Of a stretch of DNA of 64,000 nt, positions 1-3,212 are shown one piece after another. The stretch is from Candidatus Latescibacterota bacterium (GTDB lineage: Bacteria > Latescibacterota > UBA2968 > UBA8231): positions 1,088,001-1,152,000 of the forward strand of contig CBDETY010000003.1 in NCBI GenBank assembly GCA_965243025.1, in the 5' to 3' direction. The notes under the pieces were generated by a model that worked only from the letters and a program-made list of their open reading frames with translations, did not search any database and was not told the origin of the DNA. Positions within the stretch are counted from its first letter, which is position 1; each line of letters opens with the position of its first letter. A program made the position numbers and the translations under genes.

Positions 1-530
1 ATGCCGTGCTGCGCCCATTCGCTCGCCAGCACCTCGTTGAGCACGATGACCCCGGCCTTGGCGGCGTTGTAGGCCGCCCGCATCGGCCATCCGCCCATGC
101 CGCCGATCGAGGCGACGGTGACGACGTTGCCCGACTGCTGCGGGATCATCGCCCGGCCGACCACCTCCTGAGTGGTGAAGAAGACGCCGTTCAGCAGGAC
201 GTCGATCTGGCGGCGCCAGTCCTCCTCGGGAAACTCCTCGGACCGGTGGGCGGTGAAGATGCCGGCGCTGTTGACGAGGATGTCGATGCGCCCGTGTTCG
301 TCCAGCACGGCATCGACCAGGGCGGAGCAGGACTCCGGCCGGCTGACGTCGAGCTGTATCGCCCGGGCGCGGTACCCCTCCGCCCGCAGGCCCGCGGCCG
401 CCTCTTCCCCGCGGTCCGGGACCAGCTCGCCGATGACCACCCGCGCCCCCTCGCCGGCCAGGGCGCGGGCGACTCCGAGTCCTATCCCCTGGCCGGCGCC
501 GGTGACGACCGCTGTCCGGTCCTCGAGCAT
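1..530 (-). CDS. SDR family NAD(P)-dependent oxidoreductase (3' end runs off the window)
   Basis: Manual translation from ATG at 530: MLEDRTAVVTGAGQGIG (TGxxxGIG), VNNAG, catalytic AYNAAK (YxxxK). Not in the ORF track because it is truncated by the window edge. Confidence 0.9.
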   Translation of the reverse strand, partial: MLEDRTAVVTGAGQGIGLGVARALAGEGARVVIGELVPDRGEEAAAGLRAEGYRARAIQLDVSRPESCSALVDAVLDEHGRIDILVNSAGIFTAHRSEEFPEEDWRRQIDVLLNGVFFTTQEVVGRAMIPQQSGNVVTVASIGGMGGWPMRAAYNAAKAGVIVLNEVLASEWAQHG

Positions 531-540
531 GACGCGGCGC

Positions 541-819
541 TCAGGGGCCCTTAACGGTCCGGTCTCCGAGGTGTTCCTTCATTCTGGAGATCAGCTCGTC
601 GTCGTCGGCGCTCGCCAGCACCATCTCCGAGAACTCCTCCGACTTCAGCTCCGCTTCCTCCAGGAAGCGCTGGTCGGCCGGTCACGGGAAGATGTAGTCG
701 CCGATGCGCCCGGCCTGCCAGGCGCGCGCCTTGTCCGCTATGCGGGCGAGCCAGGGAATGCCGCCGATAACGAGTCCCCGGGCCCGGGGTTTGAAGTCGA
801 GGTTGTCCGATTCGCTCAT
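541..819 (-). CDS. DUF5069-like small protein, putative selenoprotein (UGA at codon 46), 92 aa
   Basis: AGGAG RBS then ATG 819: MSESDNLDFKPRARGLVIGGIPWLARIADKARAWQAGRIGDYIFP-UGA-PADQRFLEEAELKSEEFSEMVLASADDDELISRMKEHLGDRTVKGP*. The family-like pattern (LxRxxDKARA...G..GDY.[YF]PCP.D..FL) continues across the UGA at 684-682, and a hairpin follows it. Confidence 0.8.
639..677 (-). promoter_or_regulatory. Putative bacterial SECIS element
   Basis: mRNA after UGA: CCGG-CCGAC-CAG-CGCUUCC-[UGGA]-GGAAGCG-GAG-CUG-AA-GUCGG. Perfect 7-bp apical stem, G at loop position 2, and the loop starts 19 nt after the UGA. Confidence 0.7.
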
Positions 820-876
820 GGTTGTTGCTCCTGAATCAGGGGTCGGGTGGGTGAAACAGGCTGTAAATCCGTGAAT

Positions 877-1926
877 TCACTTGCTTCCGGCATCGACCCG
901 GCCGGGTTCCGAATCCCGCATCCTCACAATCCATTCAGGGGAGAGGAGACGGGCGAACTGCCTCCTCAAGCCCGTGGTCATGGTATCGTCCCCGAGGGGG
1001 GCGGCGACCGCGGCGCAGAGCTGGCGCAGCCGCAGGTCCGGCTGCCGCCATGCCTTCAGAAGCGCCCGGTGCGGCTCGTGCCCGGGGCGGTCGAGGGCTC
1101 CGCAGAGCCTGGCCGCGGCGTTCAGGTGGAAGAGGATGTGGTGGCCATCGAGGGCGAACGCCCTGCGGGCCCGGCCACCCGGGGCCGAGCGCGCGTACCG
1201 GCGGGCGGCGGTGCGGTCGAGGAGGCCGGCGAAGCCGCCTTCGGCGCCCGCTCCCAGGCCGGTGGCGTACTGCACCAGCCTCCGCTCCGGCCAGTCCCAG
1301 CCGATCTTGGCGAACTCGATGAAGCTGACGGCGCCGCTGCCGGGGTCGACGACGACGTTGCGGGCGTTGTAGTCGGTGCTGCCGAGGCTCGGCTCCTCAC
1401 CGGCGAGCCGGGAGCAGAGCTCGTCGATCAGTTCCTCGAGCTTCCGGAGAGCCGGCCCGTCCCCCTGCCCGAAGCGGCGCAGAAGTCCGTGCAAGCCGTC
1501 CAGGGCGCCGCCGCGAACCTGGTCGAGGACGGCCGGGAGCCGGTCGCGGGAAGCAGCGGGAGAGACGTGGGGCTCCAGCTCCGGCCGGCAGTCGGCGAAG
1601 GCCTGCTCGAGCCGCAGGAACCCGCTGACGAGCCGCTCCCGCAACCGCTGGCGGCTCTCCGGGCCGGAGCTGCGGGCCGCGTCGTCCAGGGTCTCGTCTC
1701 CCACGTGCTCGAAGAAGATGATGCCCGCCGACGGATCGGAGCCCAGAACCCGGGGCACCGGGCATTTCCGTTCCCCCAGCAGGGCGAGAACCCGCTGTTC
1801 CACGGCGAGCAGGTCGTCGGCCCGGCCCCGGGTGAGGCCGGCGAAGGGCTGGCGCTTGGCGACGGCGCGGCGGCCGCCGTCGAGGTCGAGCCTCCAGACC
1901 CCGGCTGCCAGTTCGGTCGCGGTCAC
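877..1926 (-). CDS. Aminoglycoside phosphotransferase/choline kinase-like protein
   Basis: VAKR lysine, VPRVLG, STDYNARNV (HxDxxxxN variant) and FIEFAKIG (DFG variant). The GTG start at 1926 overlaps the upstream stop (GTGA). Confidence 0.7.
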   Translation of the reverse strand: MTATELAAGVWRLDLDGGRRAVAKRQPFAGLTRGRADDLLAVEQRVLALLGERKCPVPRVLGSDPSAGIIFFEHVGDETLDDAARSSGPESRQRLRERLVSGFLRLEQAFADCRPELEPHVSPAASRDRLPAVLDQVRGGALDGLHGLLRRFGQGDGPALRKLEELIDELCSRLAGEEPSLGSTDYNARNVVVDPGSGAVSFIEFAKIGWDWPERRLVQYATGLGAGAEGGFAGLLDRTAARRYARSAPGGRARRAFALDGHHILFHLNAAARLCGALDRPGHEPHRALLKAWRQPDLRLRQLCAAVAAPLGDDTMTTGLRRQFARLLSPEWIVRMRDSEPGRVDAGSK

Positions 1927-2300
1927 TCTTCCCCGAACAGGATGATCTGGGAGGAGAGCTTGCCGGCCTGGTTGTTGTGTTCGGGATTCTCGTTCATCGC
2001 CAGGTGGAGCAGTCCGTCGCGGTCGCAGAGGAAGTCGTGGCGGCTGCCGACGGCGAAGGGCGGGCCGTCGTCGCCGACGCGGGCGATCAGCATGCCGACG
2101 TTGGCCCCGGGCAGCAGGTATCCCTCCTCCGCCGGGAGGTTGTACACCCCGTCGGCCCCGCACCAGGCGATCTGGTTGCGCATGTCCGGCGACCAGACCT
2201 CCTCGGTGTCGATGACCACCCGCTGTCCCCGGCGCAGGCGGATCAGGGTATCCTGCCACTCGGGGCTGGGGCGGACGGTGCGGATGACGGTCAGTGCCAT
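1923..2300 (-). CDS. Hypothetical protein, LecA/PA-IL-like beta-sandwich
   Basis: RBS AGGAAGG then ATG 2300. WQDTxIxL..GQ.V.I, G.LIARVG..G.PF.VG and G.L.LAMN...NN.G pattern recalls PA-IL-like domains. Confidence 0.55.
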   Translation of the reverse strand: MALTVIRTVRPSPEWQDTLIRLRRGQRVVIDTEEVWSPDMRNQIAWCGADGVYNLPAEEGYLLPGANVGMLIARVGDDGPPFAVGSRHDFLCDRDGLLHLAMNENPEHNNQAGKLSSQIILFGEE

Positions 2301-2544: not shown

Positions 2545-2976
2545 TCAGTGCCGGATCAGGACAAGGGCCTGGAGGCCGCCGGGAACTCGTGAGGGATCGA
2601 TGTGGGAATCCAGAGTGGCGAAACGGCCGCCGCGATGTACGGCCAGGGCCAGCAGGTAGGCGTCGGTAAGCTGCTTCGAAGTGATGCCCTGAAGTGACGG
2701 CAGCGTGCGACTGTCGGCCGCGGAGATGCTGTCCTCCCAGAACAGGTGCCCCGGTACGGAACGCAGGCGCTGGAGCAGAGGCCGGACCTTTTCAGGCGAC
2801 CCGGGCCCTCCCGGGTACCCGGGGTGACCCATGACCCGCAGCAATCCGTTCTCAGTCAGTGGGCAGGTTACCCAGCCTTCAGCCCGGTATGCGCGGAACC
2901 ACTGCGCTGCCGGGCGATGGTGGACGTGATCGGCGTCGCAGAGCGCGACGAGGAGGTTCACGTCCAGCAGGTTCAC
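2545..2976 (-). CDS. vapC: PIN-domain toxin, VapC family
   Basis: LLDVNLLVAL, TENG, LTDAYLLALA and FATLD PIN motifs; overlaps the antitoxin stop. Confidence 0.92.
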   Translation of the reverse strand: MNLLDVNLLVALCDADHVHHRPAAQWFRAYRAEGWVTCPLTENGLLRVMGHPGYPGGPGSPEKVRPLLQRLRSVPGHLFWEDSISAADSRTLPSLQGITSKQLTDAYLLALAVHRGGRFATLDSHIDPSRVPGGLQALVLIRH

Positions 2977-3212
2977 CCGGTCTCCTCATCCAGAAGCCTC
3001 CCGACGATTTCCGCGGTAACGCGGGCACCCCGGGAAGGAAGGTGGGGCAAACCGTCATCGTCCACCTCGAAGAGGGCCGGCGTTGAAGCGCCGTGGTGAA
3101 CCTCTCGTTCGAGAGCGTGGGTGACTATGGCCTTCAGAGTGGTGCCGCGGCGGGCTGCCATGGCCTTCGCCGCACGCAGGAGGGCATCGGGAAGCTCGAT
3201 GGTCGTCTTCAT
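2973..3212 (-). CDS. vapB: VapB-type RHH antitoxin
   Basis: MKTTIELPDALLRAAK ribbon-helix-helix N-terminus, 79 aa, directly upstream of the PIN toxin. Confidence 0.88.
   Translation of the reverse strand: MKTTIELPDALLRAAKAMAARRGTTLKAIVTHALEREVHHGASTPALFEVDDDGLPHLPSRGARVTAEIVGRLLDEETG

Follow-up and report, generated by a model that had tools for sequence, protein, structure and literature searches.

Does the TGA that interrupts a short minus-strand reading frame in this 64,000-nt stretch of DNA (the window) end a gene, or is it read as selenocysteine (Sec)? The first-pass annotation had described an AGGAG-ATG frame of 45 codons, a UGA and 46 further codons that the ORF track missed, and every one of its coordinates checks out on the sequence. 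From ATG 819-817 the frame runs through 45 sense codons to TGA 684-682 and then through 46 sense codons to a stop TGA at 543-541. This stop lies 10 nt ahead of the ATG (530-528) of a short-chain dehydrogenase/reductase (SDR) gene, as had been annotated, and a match to adh_short (E 1e-46) confirmed the SDR assignment. The ORF listing contains just two fragments here, 682-819 (45 aa) and 551-685 in a different frame. We propose that minus-strand 819..541 is very probably a single gene whose product is a selenoprotein of 92 residues, a short-form DUF5069 protein; a hairpin would direct Sec to UGA-46, and Sec46 would be a reactive residue. The features of the gene are as follows.

541..819, minus strand: proposed short DUF5069 selenoprotein coding sequence, 92 codons including Sec46, plus terminal TGA 543-541 (translation with TGA read as U; Pfam PF16798)
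828..832, minus strand: ribosome-binding site AGGAG, with an 8-nt spacer to ATG 819-817 (direct sequence reading)
682..684, minus strand: in-frame UGA, codon 46, very probably read as Sec (alignment column TGA or TGC/TGT; no variant letter in the contigs of four runs)

The read-through product matched Pfam PF16798 (DUF5069) at 60.2 bits (cut-off 27, E 3.1e-16) over profile positions 4-80 of 133. The N-terminal half by itself scored 28.2 bits on profile positions 4-37 and the C-terminal half 18.3 bits on positions 42-80, in the frame that it shares with the N-terminal half; because each half matches DUF5069 in one frame, both are parts of one domain. The product thus belongs to Pfam DUF5069 by a score above the gathering threshold and by the fold of the solved member 3omd. 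Against NCBIfam, including its NF-numbered selenoprotein models, the read-through protein gave no match at E ≤ 1.

TGA and Cys codons at one column among relatives

We searched 61 genomes (the genome itself and others of its genus, family and class) in six frames with stops read through, taking E ≤ 7.1e-20 as the orthologue level. An orthologue-level match was present in 51 genomes, the remaining 10 giving weaker paralogue matches or none. Exactly one in-frame TGA lay within the match in 41 of the 51 orthologues and none in the other 10. The column of the TGA was read in 30 loci, the other 21 of the 51 matches giving a stop count only; in these 30 loci it had TGA in 22 cases and TGC or TGT in 8. 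A second set, which overlaps the first, came from a scan of one genome per species that yielded 136 encoding stretches, 80 of which were kept. These 80 named loci from metagenome-assembled genomes (MAGs) are labelled Candidatus Latescibacterota, Gemmatimonadota/Gemmatimonadetes and Candidatus Poribacteria, plus a few other labels, and carried TGA in 67 cases and a Cys codon in 13 (9 TGC, 4 TGT). When the two sets are combined, the 81 nt surrounding the codon exist in 71 different TGA versions and 14 different Cys versions.

TGA and Cys codons therefore share a single column in both sets, which is the Sec/Cys pair expected of bacterial selenoprotein genes. The first-pass annotation had placed Sec where homologues carry a conserved Cys, and this was confirmed: in the 30-locus set, the 80-locus set and 3omd the homologues have Cys, never Trp, at the UGA column. 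A tree was built from 84 distinct proteins, 70 with Sec and 14 with Cys, with the Sec/Cys column masked; on it the state changed at least four times, two of these changes being forced by well-supported branches. Column 46 is the sole invariant Cys/Sec position in the alignment, in which several Arg and Lys are invariant too. The motif that had been given for this place, Y-x-x-C-P-x-D, holds for the close family (the Cys orthologues and 3omd) but is not DUF5069-wide, since the triple-domain paralogue in the same genome is without Cys there.

The genome also encodes the Sec machinery, for which a check had been proposed at the outset: selA (533.7 bits), selB (320.2), selD (361.8) and tRNA-Sec (69.7) are all present and scored above curated cut-offs, and ARAGORN called a tRNA-SeC with anticodon tca. 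Among the 61 genomes selA was found in 55. It was present in 40 of the 41 TGA-form genomes, the exception being an 81%-complete MAG in 810 contigs. Of the 10 Cys-form genomes, 7 have it; where selA is missing from an orthologue-bearing genome of ≥86% completeness (three cases), the form is always Cys. The selD gene of this genome itself encodes a selenoprotein, with an in-frame TGA at the U-x-x-K site (L016:1528; contig C3, near 31.9 kb). Its UGA is followed, 11 nt on, by a 6-bp hairpin with a GGUC loop, in the same geometry as the DUF5069 element described below.

Could a variant code or a suppressor tRNA instead place one of the standard amino acids, Trp, Cys or Gly, at the UGA? UGA has been reassigned in some uncultured lineages, and the inserted residue is not shown by sequence alone, yet the same gene terminates in TGA both here and in close relatives, and its own terminal TGA implies that UGA is a stop in this organism. 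With Cys rather than Trp or Gly at the column in homologues, a full Sec machinery including a Sec-type tRNA (tca) and a hairpin that fits the bSECIS model, we consider such a reading very unlikely.

The hairpin and the downstream half

Insertion of Sec, the reading that we prefer, would depend on a SECIS element within the coding sequence, for which the following features were delineated.

652..669, minus strand: conserved core of the predicted SECIS element, 7-bp stem CGCUUCC/GGAAGCG with loop UGGA (pairing and covariation in 71 TGA forms)
639..677, minus strand: extended hairpin, CAG/CUG and CCGAC/GUCGG flanking the core (folds in this window; not conserved family-wide)

The core stem begins 12 nt, and its loop 19 nt, past the UGA. 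As set out in the Fig. 2 legend of PMC13188914, bSECIS elements have a loop of 3-9 nt, an upper stem of 4-16 bp, a G in the first two loop positions, a UGA-loop distance of 16-37 nt and a minimum free energy of -7.5 kcal/mol or lower. The hairpin lies within each of these bounds, with a 4-nt loop UGGA, a 7-bp stem, G at position 2, the 19-nt spacing and -22.7 kcal/mol (64-nt stretch). A scan of window positions 450-950 against Rfam by E-value gave no match. As a single sequence the fold is ordinary for a GC-rich stretch (z -1.08; 29 of 200 shuffles at least as stable), so that the evidence for a SECIS element is comparative, not thermodynamic.

The first-pass annotation had drawn the hairpin with both extensions, and core and extensions alike are present in the window, but only the 7-bp core proved to be conserved: in the 71 distinct TGA forms, 96.4% of cells were paired in the core helix versus 53.3% in the outer extensions. 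The extensions thus appear to be largely specific to this genome, and we left them out of the functional element. Across the 71 TGA forms there is hardly any change in the loop or in the four inner pairs, and this extends to the third positions of the F-L-E-E codons and to the AT-rich Poribacteria genes; amino-acid constraint accounts for part of the conservation, since the sequences are related and the region is coding. The three outer core pairs change on both sides (CG 30 and AU 26; UA 29, GU 20, AU 10 and GC 10; CG 37 and GC 34), although the independent compensatory events are fewer than these cell counts suggest, because the covariation falls to a large extent between two clades, one Latescibacterota-type and the other Poribacteria. 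The covariation score of 0.267 was reached by 0 of 500 shuffles and fell to 0.018-0.090 when the partner was slid by 1-3 columns; covariation had been named in advance as a check on the hairpin, and the compensatory changes at three pairs bear it out. In the Cys forms (n = 14) the same columns were 75.5% paired, largely via G-U, and the score was reached by 143 of 500 shuffles, that is, with no excess; judged from these alignments, the hairpin decays in the Cys forms. Synonymous divergence dips behind the UGA, with a median dS of 0.64 over codons +1..+11 versus 1.19 upstream and 1.34 downstream.

Further downstream, over codons +12..+36, the median dN/dS was 0.22, and that of the upstream half was 0.12 (74 TGA forms; 989 usable pairs downstream and 1023 upstream out of 2701, the rest being saturated or too close). 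These ratios indicate that the sequence 3′ of the UGA is translated and under purifying selection, which agrees with the earlier expectation that the downstream half would be conserved among UGA-bearing relatives.

We suggest that a ribosome arriving at UGA-46 would meet the in-CDS hairpin 12 nt downstream (7 bp, loop UGGA), which would hold SelB with Sec-tRNA(Sec). Sec would then be inserted in place of termination, and 46 more codons would be translated up to the second UGA, which is without such a hairpin. This predicted recoding step is supported by the comparative evidence and by the established E. coli mechanism. In the product, Sec46 would stand in for the single invariant Cys of the orthologues, in a motif U/C-P-x-D.

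An identical 'break' column in 67 of 80 and 22 of 30 loci, from two candidate phyla, speaks against a true stop at the TGA; on that reading the locus would be a DUF5069 pseudogene in decay, or would encode a 45-residue peptide with untranslated sequence behind it. Gene callers do treat the codon as a stop, and three protein-database fragments (P0067-P0069) end exactly before it, but the downstream frame is open with a dN/dS of 0.22. Likewise, the energy of the hairpin alone is not significant, but its covariation is limited to the TGA forms, and these sit in selA-positive genomes (40 of 41). A true stop is therefore extremely unlikely, and Sec at UGA-46 remains the reading we adopt.

The stretch occurs in runs from 13 studies, several of them labelled sponge or coral-reef metagenomes. 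The contigs of four runs from four studies, including one metatranscriptomic library, have no letter other than TGA at 682-684; such contigs are evidence that the sequence is present, not that it is transcribed or where it ends. The Cys codons TGC and TGT are each one base from TGA, and Cys forms exist in relatives, but the probability that the TGA is a sequencing or assembly error is negligible, as TGA stands in these independent assemblies, a test that had been proposed with the original call, and recurs in 71 distinct sequences from different assemblies. No metagenome contig covers all of 300-1300, the contigs breaking at ~647-706. At window positions 640-707 the summed contig depth peaks 5- to 20-fold over the UGA/SECIS region (four runs), and short contigs often end at ~647, 655, 684 and 706. 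Both the depth peak and the contig ends are consistent with co-occurring strains that share the near-invariant SECIS core.

Protein fold and gene neighbourhood

The AlphaFold model of the protein (pLDDT 86.4) has four helices and two short strands, with residue 46 directly before helix 47-55. Foldseek aligned it with 3omd from Leptospirillum rubarum, the only solved DUF5069 structure, at E 1.8e-4 (TM 0.75 on the query and 0.48 on the target; rmsd 1.1 over 73 columns). 3omd matches the profile at E 4.3e-12 and has Cys at the UGA column. We found no UxxC/CxxU motif, no second invariant Cys and no thioredoxin fold that would place the protein in the thioredoxin-fold redox class; its motif is U-P-x-D. 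Thiolates and selenolates placed at the N-terminus of a helix are typically reactive, and selenocysteine is costly and found almost only at reactive sites. From the placement of Sec46/Cys46 at a helix N-terminus we infer that the protein would be a small enzyme or carrier in which this residue acts as nucleophile or redox centre; with no resolving Cys in the same chain, it would depend on a thiol from outside or on a partner protein.

The same genome encodes a triple-DUF5069 paralogue of 433 residues (L026, C3:4138490-4139740, minus strand), and similar 430-450-aa frames occur in many relatives. The loop in which the short form has Sec is without Cys in all three of its domains; the fold thus does not require position 46, whose role could be in part structural. 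In a relative, G010, the triple-DUF5069 paralogue (L141, G010:C1:2155831-2156448, minus strand) contains an in-frame TGA that we considered as a second Sec site and rejected, since the other domains have Gly there, not Cys; this TGA may reflect a pseudogene or a sequencing error.

The gene is flanked by the following neighbours.

3..530, minus strand: short-chain dehydrogenase/reductase gene, downstream, runs off the window (adh_short, E 1e-46)
877..1926, minus strand: kinase-fold gene (APH or small-molecule-kinase type), upstream, 349 aa (structure model, Foldseek)
1923..2300, minus strand: gene for a 125-aa protein, its stop overlapping the GTG start of the kinase-like gene (GTGA) (conserved neighbour)
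2545-2976, minus strand: PIN-domain toxin, its stop and start overlapping with the VapB-like gene
2973-3212, minus strand: VapB-like antitoxin (pair at window 2545-3212)

The kinase-fold protein has no family in Pfam or NCBIfam. Its AF2 model (pLDDT 93.4) gave as best Foldseek matches a putative APH, 3csv (E 3.4e-7), PsiK and corramycin phosphotransferase. Lys24, Glu43, Asp185 and Asn190 are invariant in it, and Glu204, within F-I-E-F, occupies what we take to be the site where kinases have a metal-binding Asp. Across 88 unique loci, 42 of the 53 of Latescibacterota type have the kinase-like gene directly upstream, against none of the 35 from Poribacteria; Poribacteria have one kinase orthologue elsewhere in the genome in 5 of 5 genomes searched (E 1e-46 to 6e-60). 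The adjacency, limited to one lineage, may be inherited synteny. An FNR-like NAD-binding oxidoreductase is encoded downstream in 26 of the 53 Latescibacterota-type loci, and kinase and oxidoreductase together give a contextual hint, rather than evidence, of a shared pathway. For the 125-aa protein we found no family at E ≤ 5 besides a chance-level DUF5397 match; its cluster is present in 56 of 110 loci, and in 39 of the 53 unique Latescibacterota-type loci. The VapB-like and PIN-domain genes form a type II toxin-antitoxin pair just upstream of the operon.

A further proposal, which we regard as unlikely, makes the short DUF5069 proteins a new enzyme class that uses a single selenolate or thiolate and works in a conserved module with the atypical APH-like small-molecule kinase and an NAD(P)-dependent oxidoreductase. 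In one possible scheme, a phosphorylated intermediate would be reduced or transferred via a Se-substrate adduct. Such Se-adduct chemistry has no described counterpart among the listed selenoprotein families and, if true, would be restricted to Latescibacterota-type bacteria and Poribacteria that live in association with sponges.

Significance and comparison with known selenoproteins

The first-pass annotation knew of no characterised DUF5069 selenoprotein, and we likewise found none in Table 1 of PMC13188914, in NCBIfam or in the literature searched. DUF5069/PF16798 is not among the 119 prokaryotic selenoprotein families and subfamilies in Table 1 of that May 2026 review (PMC13188914). The terms 'DUF5069' and 'PF16798' have no mention in the full text of the literature searched, and literature listings for selenoprotein with Poribacteria, Latescibacter- or sponge symbionts contained nothing relevant. 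Nor is DUF5069 named in the main texts of deep-Sep (PMC12013277), BSepDB (PMC13326102), the GOS study (PMC2398784) and the 2022 review (PMC9312934). The last-but-one of these also reported, in 2008, a 'hypothetical protein GOS_A' with 2 Sec sequences, in a text that gives no sequence to compare with DUF5069 (PMC2398784).

With the short DUF5069 form, the prokaryotic selenoproteome would gain a family that has a fold with a crystal structure and no known function. Because Sec occurs almost only at reactive sites, it would point to residue 46, together with the helix start U/C-P-x-D, as the place where DUF5069 probably has its active centre, and a domain of unknown function would become testable by site-directed and redox assays. 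Annotation is affected as well: in public protein sets the family appears only as Cys forms or as 45-residue stubs that end at the UGA, so that the gene goes uncalled in most of its host lineages, which are uncultured and largely sponge-associated. For SECIS modelling outside Proteobacteria and Firmicutes, the hairpin, 18 nt long and strictly conserved, would in addition offer a clean natural case.

The closest known proteins are the Cys-containing short DUF5069 proteins (~89-92 aa, named 'DUF5069 domain-containing protein' or 'hypothetical protein') and 3omd, which share with the present protein the family, the fold and the motif Y-x-[YF]-[PN]-C/U-P-x-D. Unlike in the Cys short forms, the Cys codon is replaced here and in most orthologues by UGA with a predicted SECIS behind it; unlike 3omd (145 residues), the short form spans about half. 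Among 69 protein-database relatives, 65 are full-length Cys forms (52-76% identity), 3 end exactly before the UGA and 1 is frameshifted, and none is named a selenoprotein. In its recoding signal the gene resembles selD of the same genome and standard bacterial selenoprotein genes such as E. coli fdhF: in each, a short stem with a small loop containing G begins 11-12 nt past the UGA, with dependence on selA/selB/selC/selD. It differs from them in host family and in its loop, UGGA rather than GGUC, and SelB binding is predicted here.

Among listed selenoprotein families, the nearest parallels are DUF166, DUF523, DUF1573, DUF1858 and DUF3179 (PMC13188914 Table 1), which likewise combine a Sec/Cys pair, TGA homologues, a bSECIS element and a single Sec with no known function. 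The DUF5069 fold is all-helical and without UxxC/CxxU, whereas the majority of the listed families are thioredoxin-like. We conclude that short DUF5069 is very probably a genuine selenoprotein family, unlisted in the sources searched, that uses the ordinary bacterial recoding mechanism.
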